A stretch of DNA of 64,000 bases. It comes from a virus. Every line of letters begins with the position of its first letter. Positions within the stretch are counted from its first letter, which is position 1. A program made the translations under genes and the position numbers. The DNA lies in UHGV virus genome UHGV-1351772; one strand, given 5' to 3'. Positions 4,201-16,432 of this stretch are shown in pieces. The notes below the pieces were generated by a model, which had not been told where the DNA came from, did no database searches, and saw only the letters and a list, made by a program, of their open reading frames with translations.

Positions 4201-7200
4201 GTGACTTTACCGAAGAAACTTTTAGGCTTCATTTCACCTAAAGCGGCTTCGTTGTTCGAGAAAGCACGTGAGTGGCTAAATGAGGTTCCAGAGGGCGCAG
4301 AGAAAACCCGTTTACAAAGCATGATTTCCCGTGTAACGGGAATGCCAGCGCGTTTGTGGAACAATGCAAAACGCGGGTTTGAGAAGCTCAAAGAGTTGGC
4401 TTCTGATAACCCTCTGACACGTTGGTGGCAGAACCGTAAGGAAGGGGGTTCTGGTGGTGGGTTTAGTGTGTTCTCATGGTCGAACGGCCGTAAAACTAAC
4501 CACATCTTAATCCGTATCTACAAACTCCTTAACCGGAGATTGCCAGGTGAACCAGAAGATGATACCTGGACAGAACAGATGGAGCGGAATACGGGAGCCA
4601 GTTCAGTTAAAGGATTATTCCAACGTGCTAAAGACATACGCGATGGGTTCCGTGAACATTTTCAGGGGTTCCGGGATTGGCGCGGTCGGATGCGTGACAG
4701 AATGTCCCGTTATCGCGGTGCGGTAGGCGATCGTCTTTCTCGTTGGGGCGGTACCGCACGTGGTTGGTTTGATCGTTTCCGTGGCCGTGCAAGCGATATG
4801 GTCGATACTTTCCGCGATCCGCGTTACGATATCGGCACACGTTATCGAATGGAGAGTCGTTTAGCAGGACGCGATGACGATGTTGCTGAGTTTTATCGTC
4901 AACACATCTACGCAAGAGGTAAGGTGTCTAAAACACGTATCATCGATGCGGCAAAAGAAGACTTAGACACCGTAACGGATAGCGCTGGACGTGTGATTAA
5001 TAAAGGGAAACAGAAAGCCCGTAGCGTTGGGTCAGCTTTACTGGAACGCCTGAACCGAATGGTTAATCTTCAGGAAATGTCATGGTTTAACACCATGCGT
5101 GATTCTGCGGAAAAAGCAGGTGCTTCGGATGGTTTGTTAAGAACTATGTTCAGTAAGTTCGGCCAACGCAATAAACCGCCTGCCAGTGATGAAAAACGTG
5201 ATTACTTCCAGTTCTTCCGACGCCGTCGTCGTTCTAAGGAAGAGGAAAAGGCTAAGAAAGAAGCCGAGAAGAAAGGTGGTAAGCGCGGGGTGATGGATTT
5301 CCTTAAAGGACTGCCGTTGGTAGGACCGATTGTGAGTATTTTAGGCACAGTAGGTTCAATCTTAGGTAAAGTCGCGAAATGGGGAATCTTTAAGCCGGTT
5401 GGGTTTGCAGGCAAAGCGTTGTGGAACGTTGGTAAGTTTGCTGTGACTCGTTTGGCTGTCCCTGCGGTGAGTGCTGTCGCGACGGCAGCATCTGCAGTGG
5501 TAACTGCGGTTGGCTGGCCGATTATCGGTTTGGTCGCTGCAGGCGCTGCGCTATCTTGGTTTGCATATAAAACTGCAACCCGTGTGAATGCTCAGTATTT
5601 GGATAACATGCGATTGGCACAGTACGGATTTAGAGATCACGATGAGTGGTCTTCCGACGATGGCGCAAAAGCACGTTATTTAGAAGACAACTTGAAACCG
5701 TACATCTCTTATACAGAGAATGGCCAAGCACAGTTGCGTGGTTTGTCCGGTGACGACGTGAAGAAACTGGCCGAAGGGTTTGGTACTAACGTAGAAGACA
5801 AAGGCGAAATGCTGGCGTTTAGTGCGTTTATGCTACAACGTTTTGTGCCGATCTATTTACGTTGGATTACGGCACTGAAATCCATGGATAATGATATCGC
5901 GTTAGCAGATGTCGGTAATCCTGCGAAAGTGTCGAAGGCAGACATGTTGAATATCTTCAACAAAATGAAGATGTCGAAAGATGCGCCTGCATTCCGTGCA
6001 TTAGAAGATCCCCGCAAGGTTAACCAAGGTTGGTTCTCTAAAGCGTGGGATTTCGTAACGTTTACCCCGGCCGAGTTTTTGTCAGGCGAAGAAGTCGTTG
6101 AAGCGCAAGAACGCGTGCTTCGTTCGATTAACATGCGTCGTGATGAAAAACGTAAGGATGTAAATGCTACAGGCGGTGTGGCCGAAGGACACAAAGTTGC
6201 TTCTGTGGCAGAATCGACCCAAGCGTTGGCTCAAGCGGATGCGGAACGCAACAAAGAAGTTGCGAAAGTCGAAGGTTGGGAAGACGGCACCGAACAAGTT
6301 CAGGTTCAAGTCGACTGGAGAAGCTTACCTAAAGAAACCGATCTCCGTGATTTGGAGTCCGTAAGGTTGAAAGCTTATGGTGCGGTGAGTATTACTCAAA
6401 CAACCCGTAACCTCTATACGCTCTTGGAACGTCAAGTGTTGCAAGACACCGATGTGAAAAGCTGTACGTATAAAGGCGACTGGAAACGTGCGATTGCGGT
6501 GATTGCGCCTGACGCCATTGGTGGGCCAAAAGAAGATCGGTACAAGAACTGGTTCTATAACCGCTTCTTACCTGTCTTCATGACGTACGTGGTTGGGGTG
6601 AAACGTTATGTCCCTGCTGCCGATCCGATGGACCTACGCGTTACGGGTGGGTTCTTGTATGAAATCGCACTGATGATGCGTGGTGCATACAACCTGAAAG
6701 GGGGTATTCGTCAGTCAGTGTGGGAGGTACCGTTTAACCCGTTAGGGGGAGACGCTAACACCGACGCCGGTTCAGTTGCAACGGAGTTAGAGAACCTGAA
6801 AGAACTGTCTAAGGAAGCTGATTTGGCAGTACGTAAAACGCTGCGTGCTACGCCTTCTGCGGGTTTCCGTGTGAACTGGCAGCGAAAAGATCGCGCGACT
6901 CAGATGTTCTTGACCGACGATGAGAAGGAGCAACCGTCTCGACCACAGATGAACACCTCCTCCTCTTATCGTGACCTATTGCAACCAGCGGCAAACGACG
7001 GTGGGAATTACGGCACACCAAACGATTTGGCCGGTGCTTACGGTCAGATGGGAGCTAAGAATTACGCTGCATTTACTACCGGTAACTTCGGCGTGAAACT
7101 TGGCGATATGCAAGACGGTGACTATAAAACGTTAGCGGCTAAGTATCCAATTTCAACGTTGGGTGACGGATTGAAGCCTAACTTGAATGCGGTTGCAGCA

Positions 7201-13258: not shown

Positions 13259-14293
13259 TTAGACAGCTATGGGAGCTTTAATTGTGTCGTGCGATTGATA
13301 TCCAACCAATTCGAAGTCTTCGAATTTGTAATCGAAGATGGAATCAGGTTTACGTTTGATAACCAGTTTAGGTAGCGGGTAAGGTTCGCGAGTAAGTTGA
13401 AGTTTTGCCTGCTCCAGATGGTTAGAGTAAAGATGAACATCTACGCCACTATAAACCAACTCGTCTGGAACCATATTGAGTTGTTGAGCAATCATGTGAG
13501 TTAACAACGCGTAAGAAGCGACGTTAAACGGTGCGCCAAGTAGGTAATCGTTGCTCCGCATCATGTAAAAACACGAAAGTTTACGACGAGGGATACCTTC
13601 ACGATCTAAGGTTTCATGAAGTCGTTCTTCGTTATCGATATCTTCGTGGTTAATAAGCGGTGCGTTCGCAAACTTTTCCGGTTCGTTTACTTCGTACCAA
13701 TCCAGTCGTTCAAGCAACGTCATTTCTGTTGTGTAAAATTGGAAATAGTTGTGACATGGATTGAGTGCCATATCGTCCAGGTCACCTACATTCCAGGCAC
13801 TAACGATAATACGGCGGGAGTCAGGGTCTTCACGAAGTTGTTGGATAACTTTACTGATCTGGTCATGTGCTTTTTCATAAACCAAATACGTCGTACTATC
13901 TTCCTTCATATTCCCGATATACTTGTAACCCCGCTGCATTAGTTGTTGTGTACGTCTTACGTCATGACACTCCACAACTTTACAGTCGCGCCATTCCCGC
14001 CACTGGTGTCCGTAGACAGGACCTAAATTCCCTTCTTCATTCGCCCAAGCATCCCAGATTTTTACCCCGTTCTCTTGCAGGTACTTCACGTTAGTGTCAC
14101 CGTTTAAGAACCACAATAGTTCATGAATGATACTTTTCAGGTGAACCTTTTTCGTAGTAACTAATGGGAAACCTTCTTTCAGGTCAAAACGTAGTTGACG
14201 ACCAAATACAGAAAGTGTCCCTACACCTGTGCGGTCTTTCTTGACAACACCGTTATCCAGAATGTCTTGCATTAACGCTAAATACTGTTTCAT
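13259..14293 (-). CDS. thyA: Thymidylate synthase family enzyme (ThyA-like) with two ~40-aa insertions
   Basis: 344 aa; near-colinear with E. coli ThyA: [37 protein letters not shown] catalytic Cys, [20 protein letters not shown] (Asn of PFN retained), C-terminal KAPIAV. Extra segments after HQWREW and after FQFYTTEM. Confidence 0.9.
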
Positions 14294-14610
14294 TTGTTAT
14301 TATTCCCCATTCGTTTCGTTAAAATGTCTAAATTACGTTGCGCTTGCTCAGGACTAAAAATAATGTTTTCCTGGCTATACGTTACATGGAAATGTTTTTT
14401 GTTAACAATCTCAACCTTAAGGCCACGAACTTCGAATTGCCGTTTAGCCTCTTCAACCTTTTTTGGTGAGATTCTAAGAAGACCCGGAAATAGTTCGTCT
14501 GCAGGAACGTAGTATTTGATTTCCTTAGTTTCGGGAATTAATTCGATTCTATCTAAACTGACGCTTATAATCTCGTCAATCTTTTTCTTTATATTGTCGT
14601 TCACAGTCAT
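14290..14610 (-). CDS. Hypothetical protein, 106 aa
   Basis: ATGA start/stop overlap with thyA-like gene (translational coupling). Confidence 0.6.
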
Positions 14611-14918
14611 TAGATTTTGTCCTTTTCGAGTTCAGTTAAAATTTCAAATAGGTCTGCGTTGGACTGCAGTACGATTTCACTGCCTTCTGCTACAACGGTA
14701 ATTGAAGGCTTCTTACCACGTAGCAAGAACTCCCAACGCATTGTTCTTACGTGGCTGTCGAGTAACTGCTTTAATTTGTGGTTAACTTCGACTTCCAATT
14801 TGCCCAGTAACTGAGGTGTAATAGCTTCGCCTGAGTTTTTGTTATAAAGTGTACGCACTAAAGAACGTAAAGAATAACCAATGCACTGCGAAATTGCCCA
14901 ACCCGAATAGTTTTCCAT
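14610..14918 (-). CDS. Hypothetical protein, 102 aa
   Basis: AAGGA SD; TAATG overlap with downstream gene. Confidence 0.6.
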   Translation of the reverse strand: MENYSGWAISQCIGYSLRSLVRTLYNKNSGEAITPQLLGKLEVEVNHKLKQLLDSHVRTMRWEFLLRGKKPSITVVAEGSEIVLQSNADLFEILTELEKDKI

Positions 14919-14919
14919 G

Positions 14920-15465
14920 TTAATCCTTCAAAATGTCTTTAAGCTTTAGTTTTGTATAGAACGGAGAACTGCTTAGTTCTTCTGTCCAACTTATACGTCC
15001 GTTCTGTAGAACCCGGTCGAAGATTAGGCCGTTCATCTTTACAATTCTAGCCAACTGATAAAAGAGCGTCGTGAGGTGTAGTCGACGCTCCATTTGTGCG
15101 CGTGCGGTACAACTACGTACCGCTTTGATAGCAAGTACCGCTTCCGGCATCAACGTCACCGCGATTGTCTCAGGATGTTCGTTTTTCCATTTCTTAATGG
15201 CTAGTAGTCTGTGTAACGATTTTTCAAGGGGACGTAAATCCCCGTTATTCATCACGTAAACCAAAGCAGCAAGATCCCACAAGGCAATACCTACTGCTTT
15301 AGCAACAAACAGCCCGTCGTGTGTTGTCGTGGATTCACAGACTTTGCCAATACTTCCGTAAACACGTGCAGTCCATGCGTCTGTCTGTTCGCCAGGTTTT
15401 ATACCCGCGTTATCCAGAAAGTGTTTAAACGCATTAACGTGTTCAGTTAACTGTATTTGTTTCAT
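14920..15465 (-). CDS. Hypothetical protein, 181 aa
   Basis: ORF in co-directional array; weak SD. Confidence 0.55.
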   Translation of the reverse strand: MKQIQLTEHVNAFKHFLDNAGIKPGEQTDAWTARVYGSIGKVCESTTTHDGLFVAKAVGIALWDLAALVYVMNNGDLRPLEKSLHRLLAIKKWKNEHPETIAVTLMPEAVLAIKAVRSCTARAQMERRLHLTTLFYQLARIVKMNGLIFDRVLQNGRISWTEELSSSPFYTKLKLKDILKD

Positions 15466-15479
15466 TTCCGATACCCGAT

Positions 15480-15944
15480 TTAGTCACGAGACTTTATTTT
15501 AAGGTACGCAACCGCAGCTCCCATGATTGCAATACCGGCACCCCAACCTATCTTTTCTATTACACTCATATCGTCCCATCTTTTCTCTACGTTACGTCGT
15601 TTGGCCTCTTCTGCCCGTTCTCTCCACATCGCTTCGCGTTCCAGACAGCTGGGATTTATTTCCTCTTCACAACGACGTTTCCGTTCTTCTTCCCCAATCA
15701 GTTCTTCTAAATAGAGTCTCGTTTCTTCCACAGCTTGTTCATAGACGTCTATGTGATCAGGAAGAACTCTCCTGTGAGCGGCTTTGTTGCGAACGGAAGC
15801 AATCATGTGGAGTTTCCGTTCGTATTTTGGTTCGAGAAGATGAGCTATGCTTTTGGTCTTCCCATGAAGCCCATGACCGGTACCGCCGAGTTTTTCCACA
15901 AGTTCTTCTACAGAAATTGCAAGATCGAGAATATATCCACGCAT
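15480..15944 (-). CDS. Putative HEPN-like protein with C-terminal transmembrane anchor
   Basis: Start moved to ATG 15944 (GGAG SD; MRGYILDLAIS...). Contains LHMIASVRNKAAHRR (R-x4-H as in HEPN RNase motifs), a charged coiled-coil-like stretch and C-terminal IGWGAGIAIMGAAVAYLKI. Confidence 0.35.
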   Translation of the reverse strand: MRGYILDLAISVEELVEKLGGTGHGLHGKTKSIAHLLEPKYERKLHMIASVRNKAAHRRVLPDHIDVYEQAVEETRLYLEELIGEEERKRRCEEEINPSCLEREAMWRERAEEAKRRNVEKRWDDMSVIEKIGWGAGIAIMGAAVAYLKIKSRD

Positions 15945-16004
15945 AATTGTTTCTCCGCTTAAACGTAGTCTTGGGAGACATAAGTTTGTTCCCAACTGTA
16001 AAAA

Positions 16005-16373
16005 TCATTTCAACAAAACAAGATGAATTTGGTATTCGTCATCCGCAGGAGAAGAATAATCGCCAGTTACAGGTAACGTTATATCTTCCAGTAGAGCGTG
16101 GAAGGGTAATCCACGAGCAGCCTCAACAATTCGTACAAGCGGAAAACCCGTTCTTTTAATCCAATTGTAATCGACAAACATAACACCGCCAGGATTTTCC
16201 GAACCTTCCCACACACGAATTTCCACAGTCTTTCCCGAAAAGTTGGCCAGAACGGTGCGCAGTCCTAATTGCACATAACGGGGGAAGGGTACTTCAATAA
16301 CTTGTTTTGGTAAAACAAATTCAGGGAATTTAAAACCGAAACCTTTGGGTGTACTAAAAAACTGAGCTTGCAT
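16005..16373 (-). CDS. Hypothetical protein, 122 aa
   Basis: ATG 16373 with AAGGAG SD. Confidence 0.6.
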   Translation of the reverse strand: MQAQFFSTPKGFGFKFPEFVLPKQVIEVPFPRYVQLGLRTVLANFSGKTVEIRVWEGSENPGGVMFVDYNWIKRTGFPLVRIVEAARGLPFHALLEDITLPVTGDYSSPADDEYQIHLVLLK

Positions 16374-16404: not shown

Positions 16405-16432
16405 TACCCTACTCCTAGTCAGGAGTAGGGTA
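16405..16432 (-). terminator. Rho-independent terminator, CCCTACTCC-stem family
   Basis: TACCCTACTCCT-AGTC-AGGAGTAGGGTA hairpin, U-run on minus strand downstream; sits 5 nt after stop of 16437-17096. Confidence 0.7.

Follow-up and report, generated by a model that had tools for sequence, protein, structure and literature searches.

The DNA analysed here (the window) is a stretch of 64,000 nucleotides from the virus genome UHGV-1351772, on the minus strand of which a gene at positions 15,480 to 15,944 encodes a protein of 154 amino acids (aa). This protein combines a small N-terminal helical domain with a highly charged spacer and a single hydrophobic helix close to its C-terminus (Table 1), and it very probably carries a tail-anchored domain of the HEPN superfamily. 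By analogy with characterised HEPN enzymes, the protein most likely acts as a dimerising, membrane-tethered and metal-independent RNase, a reading to which we assign a probability of roughly 0.55.

The gene and its HEPN-like domain

According to the list of open reading frames (ORFs) and the sequence itself, the coding sequence (CDS) runs from an ATG at 15944 to a stop codon at 15480-15482. A start at the in-frame TTG further upstream (15995) would yield 171 aa; the ATG is preferred because the Shine-Dalgarno-like GGAG lies 8 nt ahead of it and because the homologues all begin with MR[GTE], the N-terminus common to all those aligned being MR[GTE][YH]IL. Comparison of seven copies from the phage clade described below gave ratios of non-synonymous to synonymous substitution rates (dN/dS) of mostly 0.04-0.35 for the N-terminal domain, which supports a coding function and indicates purifying selection. 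Complete clade homologues measure 136-191 aa, the whole set (n = 57) spans 86-191 aa, and a six-frame search with hidden Markov models found no second paralogue in the window.

Table 1. Features of the locus, with positions in the window
Feature	Position	Strand	Basis
CDS, tail-anchored mini-HEPN protein (probable assignment), 154 aa	15480..15944	-	ORF list, homologues, dN/dS
Shine-Dalgarno-like GGAG	15953..15956	-	sequence reading
N-terminal minimal HEPN-like domain, aa 1-84; predicted helices 2-18, 25-32, 39-58, 65-83	15693..15944	-	
Predicted catalytic motif R52-N53-K54-A55-A56-H57, C-terminal end of helix 3	15774..15791	-	invariance, position
Family signature E13 ... G20-G-T-G23-x-G25-L-H27-x-K29, aa 13-29	15858..15908	-	conservation in A3, A4
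Charged variable helical spacer, aa 85-127	15564..15692	-	charge count, alignment, low model confidence
Gly/Ala-rich C-terminal transmembrane anchor, aa 132-148	15501..15551	-	hydropathy scans, clade conservation
Short basic tail KIKSRD	15483..15500	-	directly after anchor
Upstream 122-aa ORF, clade-restricted	16005..16373	-	11 homologues
Intrinsic-terminator-like hairpin, 12-bp stem and T-run	16405..16432	-	consensus scan, pattern match only

The N-terminal domain is modelled by AlphaFold with high confidence (predicted local distance difference test, pLDDT, 95.5; predicted template modelling score, pTM, 0.85), and its four predicted helices pack into the compact up-down bundle of the HEPN type. 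Its best Foldseek matches are HepT/SO_3166 toxins (probability 0.96), and HEPN proteins are strongly enriched among the best matches of two independent fold searches. In canonical HEPN domains an Rx4-6H motif lies where helix 3 ends or where the loop to helix 4 begins, and its Arg is usually followed by Asn, Asp or His (PMC3710099). The same placement is found here, as R52-N53...H57 closes the third predicted helix and the fourth follows directly. The Rx4H in a helical context that an earlier note on this DNA had likened to HEPN active sites is thus borne out by the position of the motif and by the HepT matches, as well as by intermediate relatives that pass curated profile cut-offs (see below).

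That note had also called its evidence weak, as it consisted of one short motif, and for the motif taken alone this holds: the 154-aa protein is rich in Arg and His, Rx4H arises in 47.5 % of its composition-preserving shuffles and Rx4-6H in 85 %, and Rx4H by itself is uninformative. What lifts the motif above chance is its conservation across homologues and diverse relatives, which was assessed in an alignment of 18 clade homologues (A1) and in two alignments of diverse relatives at ~30 % identity (A3, 62 sequences; A4, 52 sequences). R52, N53, K54 and H57 are invariant in A1 (18/18); E13, G23, R52, N53 and H57 are invariant in both A3 and A4, where G20, G25, H27, K29, S32 and A49 reach a conservation of 90 % or more. 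The resulting family consensus reads E-x-L-L-x3-G-A-x-G-R-G-L-H-E-K-x2-S ... I-A-x2-R-N-K-x2-H-E. Catalytic HEPN versions keep the Rx4-6H motif and non-catalytic ones typically lose it (PMC3710099); its retention throughout A1, A3 and A4 is the pattern of the former.

Many HEPN domains possess a second conserved acidic residue upstream, often within Ex3[KR], that lies spatially near the motif (PMC3710099). E13, invariant in A3 and A4, resides in the first helix, and the window protein additionally shows E14-x3-K18. Together with the Gly-rich loop and its His and Lys, E13 may form an auxiliary active-site or RNA-binding element, since other HEPN families combine an upstream acidic residue with a His in an insert. 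Within this loop, the window copy and a near-identical twin in IMG/VR carry H24 and G28 (GTGHGLHGK, nt 15858-15875), whereas R24 and E28 (GTGRGLHEK) are found in almost every other member of the family.

Profile comparisons place the domain in the same superfamily. The weak match of the query to Pfam DUF4145 aligns residues 12-60 with model positions 22-72; among the 18 close homologues, ten weakly match DUF4145 (best E 0.013) and four Abi_2. All weak Pfam matches of the N-terminal domain (residues 1-84) belong to the HEPN clan CL0291, and weak non-HEPN matches occur in few members. In the 62 relatives of A3 the commonest Pfam families are DUF4145, HEPN_Apea, HEPN_RiboL-PSP, HEPN_Swt1 and DUF3644. 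An exhaustive search with a profile of the domain retrieved 329 representative clusters (made at 50 % identity) at E ≤0.001. Two relatives serve as intermediates: P0060, matched by the domain profile with E 9.5e-14, reaches DUF4145 over the same region with 30.0 bits (cut-off 23.1), and a tandem-domain plasmid relative, the domain of which is 56 % identical to that of the query, reaches HEPN_RiboL-PSP with 38.6 bits (cut-off 28.4). Several relatives are named 'DUF4145 domain-containing' by NCBI. In a search of the wide profile against PDB sequences the best match is HepS (E 0.6, non-significant); immunoglobulin matches to 'IRNKA' among the PDB sequences were discarded as spurious.

No PHROGs family was found for the 154-aa protein and no NCBIfam match for the query; its relatives show only weak, scattered matches to HEPN-bearing PADLOC models (Cas13, Csm6, PD-T7-4). 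With four independent lines of evidence in agreement, we conclude that the domain is probably a minimal HEPN of a distinct family near DUF4145 and RiboL-PSP, with the query itself under the Pfam threshold; the separate family is proposed because the query scores 13.4 bits with DUF4145 and only some distant relatives pass that model.

Spacer, membrane anchor and relatives elsewhere

Behind the domain, 26 of the 43 residues between positions 85 and 127 are charged (60 %). AlphaFold places helices over residues 91-130 at low confidence (pLDDT 48-64), and the anchor is modelled at low confidence as well. Among the homologues, conservation is high across the N-terminal ~84 residues. The charged segment is poorly conserved within the clade and ranges in length from ~0 to ~55 residues among homologues, the 136-aa forms carrying a short Pro/Ser/Glu-rich linker in its place. 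Of the coiled-coil-like segment initially proposed, the high charge and the helices in the model therefore stand, whereas the low pLDDT, poor conservation and varying length argue for a variable spacer.

The sole strongly hydrophobic stretch of the protein comprises residues 132-148 (IGWGAGIAIMGAAVAYL) and is followed by the 6-residue tail KIKSRD; here and for the relatives, transmembrane (TM) segments were called by crude hydropathy scans. The same scan of the 154-aa protein detects no signal-like segment at the N-terminus and no further hydrophobic window, which is the layout of a C-tail-anchored protein. Within the clade, the anchor core residues G137, I138, A139, I140 and A144 and the juxtamembrane W123 are invariant. 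The single C-terminal hydrophobic helix recognised in the earlier note is accordingly recovered as one segment near the C-terminus, and it is both kept in the clade and dominant in the wider family. Since the protein lacks an N-terminal signal-like segment, a cytoplasmic domain with a C-terminal anchor is expected, and by analogy with tail-anchored proteins of E. coli we infer that the N-terminal domain faces the cytoplasm and the C-terminal helix resides in the inner membrane.

Among 245 relatives outside the phage clade, 180 possess at least one TM segment after the domain, and in 121 of the 245 a single-pass anchor ends no more than 12 residues from the C-terminus, these proteins having a median length of 123 aa. 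Several TM segments occur in 32 of these relatives, and two tandem HEPN domains precede the anchor in 11. The tail anchor is hence the dominant architecture of the wider family and its hallmark; some relatives have multiple TM segments and zinc-ribbon matches, and many are planctomycetal. The models of Pfam, PHROGs, NCBIfam and PADLOC do not cover the form in which an 84-aa HEPN domain is joined to a single anchor at the extreme C-terminus, lacks an extracytoplasmic part and is carried by a jumbo phage, and a literature search on HEPN plus tail-anchored found no experimental work on it.

Genomic contexts in bacteria were taken from the contigs that encode the relatives. The closest ones outside phages are enterobacterial, such as the 144-aa full-length relative (580-1014) on the 2,078-bp Col(MG828) plasmid NZ_CP145633.1 from E. 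coli, which has just two annotated genes, one for a helix-turn-helix protein and one for the relative as effectively the sole cargo. This protein shares with the phage protein the start MRGYILD and the juxtamembrane/anchor motif NWSDMSVMEK...KIK. Another relative, P0228 (129 aa), likewise full-length, is found in the leading regions of conjugative plasmids (at 6001-6390 / 1898-2287) between ardA and DUF1380/YubE/orphan-methylase genes, near psiB, psiA and a ParB-like gene, and on the strand opposite to all leading-region genes. On the 3,657-bp plasmid NZ_CP148488.1 a 293-aa protein (683-2066) carries the mini-HEPN domain twice in tandem, together with a coiled spacer and an anchor at the C-terminus. 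The ORF downstream of that gene, which overlaps it, encodes 172 aa that are Gly/Ala-rich and very hydrophobic, with a bacteriocin- or pore-like look; the two may constitute a two-gene module.

In Vibrio chromosomes a member of ~121 aa (6001-6369) occupies a conserved locus between DUF2500 and YhhN and looks vertically inherited rather than mobile. The same locus further holds genes for an RsmD-like methyltransferase, FtsE, FtsX and a sigma factor, and an unannotated gap of ~0.7-0.9 kb follows the member. On planctomycete and other metagenomic contigs the gene sits among housekeeping genes, and in Salmonella Claibornei it is part of an island of unknown genes. In the neighbourhoods of nine relatives no recurrent neighbour or conserved partner was found, and no MNT or other antitoxin.

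Setting in a jumbo phage clade

The window derives from the genome of a jumbo phage related to SPN3US. Its large ORFs match PHROGs for a giant tail-fibre/transglycosylase, virion structural proteins, a UvsX-like recombinase, RNase H and an SbcC-like protein, and the neighbouring 219-aa ORF is 57-59 % identical to its counterparts in SPN3US, Asesino, phiEaH2 and related phages (~240 kb). Among 50,697 GenBank phage records, the window DNA found no close match by megablast and the 154-aa protein no match by tblastn. At ~90 % identity, the same element has been deposited as a circular 'plasmid' both from E. coli (221,873 bp) and from Enterobacter ludwigii (222,441 bp), the circular 'plasmid' records of the clade being NZ_CP173450.1 and NZ_CP134650.1. 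The clade is also represented by IMG/VR viral contigs of ~221-225 kb and by contigs of ~221-226 kb in NCBI records named Salmonella and Shigella; several of the 57 homologues lie on contigs of ~221-226 kb. These records could reflect a carrier state, pseudolysogeny or culture contamination.

The SPN3US gene order gp043-gp042-gp041-gp040-gp039-gp038-thyA is collinear with the window. At the syntenic slot SPN3US encodes gp039; the idea that it is a diverged homologue of the 154-aa protein was rejected, as BLASTP gave E 0.62 and hhalign a probability of 0.07. The gene for the 154-aa protein is kept at this slot in each of the seven clade genomes that were compared, and it is best seen as a clade-specific accessory in a variable slot, since SPN3US holds the unrelated gp039 there.

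Directly upstream, and in the same apparent transcription unit, lies the 122-aa ORFan listed in Table 1. It yielded no Pfam or PHROG match and no tblastn match in phages; only 11 homologues were found, and those on long contigs sit on contigs of ~223-226 kb. SPN3US gp040 was rejected as its homologue as well (no similarity), the 122-aa ORF replacing gp040 in the gene order. It is possible that this ORF is a co-transcribed functional partner of the HEPN gene. The terminator-like hairpin separates the conserved 219-aa gene from the pair of small clade-specific genes and likely marks a transcription-unit boundary. No MNT, nucleotidyltransferase (NTase) or other antitoxin family was matched by the neighbouring ORFs in Pfam or PHROG searches, and the pairing of HEPN-MNT modules is accordingly not seen at the locus.

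On the other side of the gene, two ORFs of 181 and 102 aa on the minus strand (14610-15465) match the N- and C-terminal parts of the 289-aa SPN3US gp038 (phrog_10269). The counterpart of gp038 is thus split in the clade, where RefSeq records likewise annotate two CDS. Further along (13259-14293, minus strand) lies a phage thymidylate synthase gene, the product of which measures 344 aa compared with 338 aa for the SPN3US homologue. ThyA proteins are usually shorter than 338-344 aa, which would imply insertions.

Putative mechanism, alternatives and comparison with known systems

In the reading favoured here, the 84-residue helical domain, predicted to be cytoplasmic and with an intact R52-N53-x3-H57 active-site motif, represents a DUF4145/RiboL-PSP-like branch of the HEPN superfamily, and the Gly/Ala-rich helix would insert into the inner membrane, leaving ~6 residues outside. 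In the HEPN enzymes characterised so far, two Rx4-6H motifs make up the site (RAZR and HepS work), and by analogy two domains would have to pair to create a composite metal-independent RNase site; tandem-domain relatives (n = 11) would fit such a need for two motifs. Anchor and spacer could concentrate and orient the protomers in two dimensions on the membrane, so that RNA cleavage would be confined to its inner face and could be gated by association of the anchors or by a membrane-level trigger. Given that a solitary gene is tolerated in chromosomes and tiny plasmids, the activity is expected to be specific or to stay latent until triggered. The term 'toxin-like' used in the earlier note should thus be softened to a gated or specific RNase, as the chromosomal relatives sit alone among housekeeping genes. 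In the phage, the most likely role would be competition between mobile elements or host take-over rather than a core phage function, which the accessory status of the gene and its kinship with plasmid genes suggest.

Several observations weigh against this reading and set the limits of our confidence in it. The Foldseek E-values are not significant, nor are those of the profile search against PDB sequences, and the direct match of the query to DUF4145 (PF13643; E 0.086, 13.4 bits) stays under the gathering cut-off of 23.1. With 84 aa the domain is shorter than a typical HEPN domain of 100-120 aa (PMC3710099), and in PADLOC-DB v2 no defence model matches the query. The anchor is of borderline hydrophobicity, with a Kyte-Doolittle value of 1.54 over 19 residues. 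Finally, the relatives in Vibrio and planctomycete chromosomes are solitary among housekeeping genes, in Vibrio at a conserved locus, which speaks against both a potent toxin that lacks regulation and a role purely in defence islands.

One alternative is a non-catalytic HEPN-like module whose ligand at the membrane would be RNA, a nucleotide or another protein, and which would serve either as an adaptor or regulator or with the anchor as the actual effector (for example, by membrane perturbation). Several HEPN families are indeed non-enzymatic, including MtlR, sacsin and NTase-associated domains (PMC3710099); standalone chromosomal copies without an antitoxin are tolerated, the domain is unusually small, and the conserved Gly-rich GxxGxGLHxK loop could bind a ligand rather than contribute to catalysis. 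Nevertheless, we regard this alternative as unlikely, as such domains typically lose the Rx4-6H motif, while here the Arg, the following Asn and the His are invariant at ~30 % identity. Moreover, the motif has exactly the same form as the catalytic RNKYAH in HepS, and the tandem duplication of the domain fits a composite catalytic site.

Quite improbable is a role as an addiction or maintenance toxin, namely a membrane RNase in a post-segregational-killing or carrier-state module that is held in check by a labile partner such as the product of the 122-aa ORF. Such a function would suit an element that entries from E. coli (221,873 bp) and Enterobacter (222,441 bp) list as a circular plasmid and that also occurs on ~221-226 kb contigs under the names Salmonella and Shigella, and it would suit the 2-kb Col plasmid, whose one cargo gene encodes a relative; the 122-aa ORF is equally clade-restricted and belongs to the same apparent transcription unit. 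However, no recognisable antitoxin fold or family, MNT included, was found next to the gene, relatives elsewhere have no conserved neighbour, and the 122-aa ORF never accompanies them. Circular assembly is, furthermore, also expected for a lytic phage, as terminally redundant lytic genomes assemble as circles too.

That the protein is an ordinary small helical tail-anchored membrane protein unrelated to HEPN, akin to ribosome- or membrane-associated stress proteins such as ElaB/YqjD, can be dismissed as highly improbable: although the motif alone appears in 47 % of shuffles, direct profile matches are sub-threshold, helical bundles cross-match in fold searches and E. coli has tail-anchored inner-membrane proteins without enzymatic domains (PMC6389858), a chance resemblance would hardly account for a motif and four or five other positions that are (near-)invariant across hundreds of clusters, for weak N-domain Pfam matches that all fall into the HEPN clan, for intermediates exceeding curated thresholds on the same region, or for the enrichment of HEPN proteins at the top of two independent fold searches.

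Beyond the phage protein itself, the gated RNase reading may conceivably be extended to the whole family, although we consider this extension doubtful. The tail-anchored mini-HEPN proteins, which make up at least 329 clusters at 50 % identity and are spread over planctomycetes, Vibrio, plasmids of enterobacteria and a jumbo phage, would then be monogenic RNases gated at the membrane, a large class so far overlooked in which the anchor senses and anchor clustering assembles the composite site. Possible triggers would include membrane perturbation by phage DNA injection, conjugation or a loss of membrane potential, and a jumbo phage of the nucleus-forming type might have captured one such protein for degrading RNA of competitors or of the host at the membrane, with its own replication kept out of reach.

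Type III and VI CRISPR systems, toxin-antitoxin modules and single-gene defences such as RAZR and HepS have HEPN RNases as their central effectors, and in all these cases the activity of the RNase is, to our knowledge, gated by a soluble sensor or partner. A spacer and an anchor as the only appendage, kept over hundreds of clusters, suggest control by two-dimensional confinement and anchor-driven dimerisation instead. The accessory slot in a jumbo phage, the cargo of a 2-kb Col plasmid and the leading-region gene together point to competition between elements. Although bacterial HEPN proteins associated with the membrane have been predicted since 2013, we know of none that has been characterised; the very small size of the present proteins (~120-150 aa) makes the idea of control by confinement experimentally tractable.

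Monogenic conflict proteins with DUF4145 or other HEPN domains are already established, namely RAZR, BxaP, Ishtar and HepS, and the window protein is best compared with these and a few further systems. The HepT toxins of HEPN/MNT modules (SO_3166, 5yep; 7ae2; 8xdj), which lead the Foldseek matches, are soluble and always paired with an MNT nucleotidyltransferase antitoxin, whereas none adjoins the present gene or its relatives. HepS, a 'HEPN solo' anticodon nuclease of the Gifsy-1 prophage (PDB 9oij/9oik), resembles the window protein in being a monogenic HEPN protein on a mobile element and is found in both fold-search lists. Its RNKYAH, with the experimentally essential R100 and H105, aligns with RNKAAH in the non-significant profile match. 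In contrast to the window protein, HepS is soluble and tetrameric, has an additional surface that senses the phage tail-tip protein J, and lacks a membrane anchor.

Two systems resemble the protein by description or layout. FS_HEPN_TM, a 'HEPN-TM' anti-phage system encoded by phage-inducible chromosomal islands (PICI), is mentioned in a review (PMC12948488). By that description, it combines HEPN and transmembrane elements on a mobile element that competes with phages. We treat it as a lead only; as generally described, it is a two-gene system and not a fusion. The tail-anchored proteins of E. coli lack a signal peptide and have a helical cytoplasmic part and a single TM segment near the C-terminus (PMC6389858); the likeness is one of architecture only, as they contain no HEPN domain and no sequence or profile similarity to them was detected.

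A further comparison is with the anti-phage protein RAZR (PD-T7-4), of which DUF4145 is the experimentally confirmed RNase domain. In both proteins the HEPN domain is small and helical and keeps an R...H motif, and each is encoded by a single gene without an antitoxin. They differ in that RAZR is soluble and ring-activated and joins an N-terminal zinc finger to a C-terminal HEPN domain with an Rx7H motif (R146, H154), while the window protein has an N-terminal domain with Rx4H, to which only the spacer and membrane anchor are added, and does not match the PADLOC PD-T7-4 model.

A conceptual precedent is the prediction by Anantharaman et al. in 2013 that membrane HEPN proteins exist in three architectures, with N-terminal WP-type TM helices, with an Abi2/Swt1-type HEPN domain after a TM segment, or with the HEPN domain at the N-terminus and two TM segments and a Zn-ribbon behind it (PMC3710099); the last of these is the most pertinent. 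Like the protein described here, these are inner-membrane proteins whose HEPN domain is predicted to face the cytoplasm, and RNA processing is proposed at the inner face of the membrane. The dominant form of the present family is, by described architecture, set apart from all three groups: at ~120-150 aa, it has one anchor at the extreme C-terminus and nothing outside the membrane.

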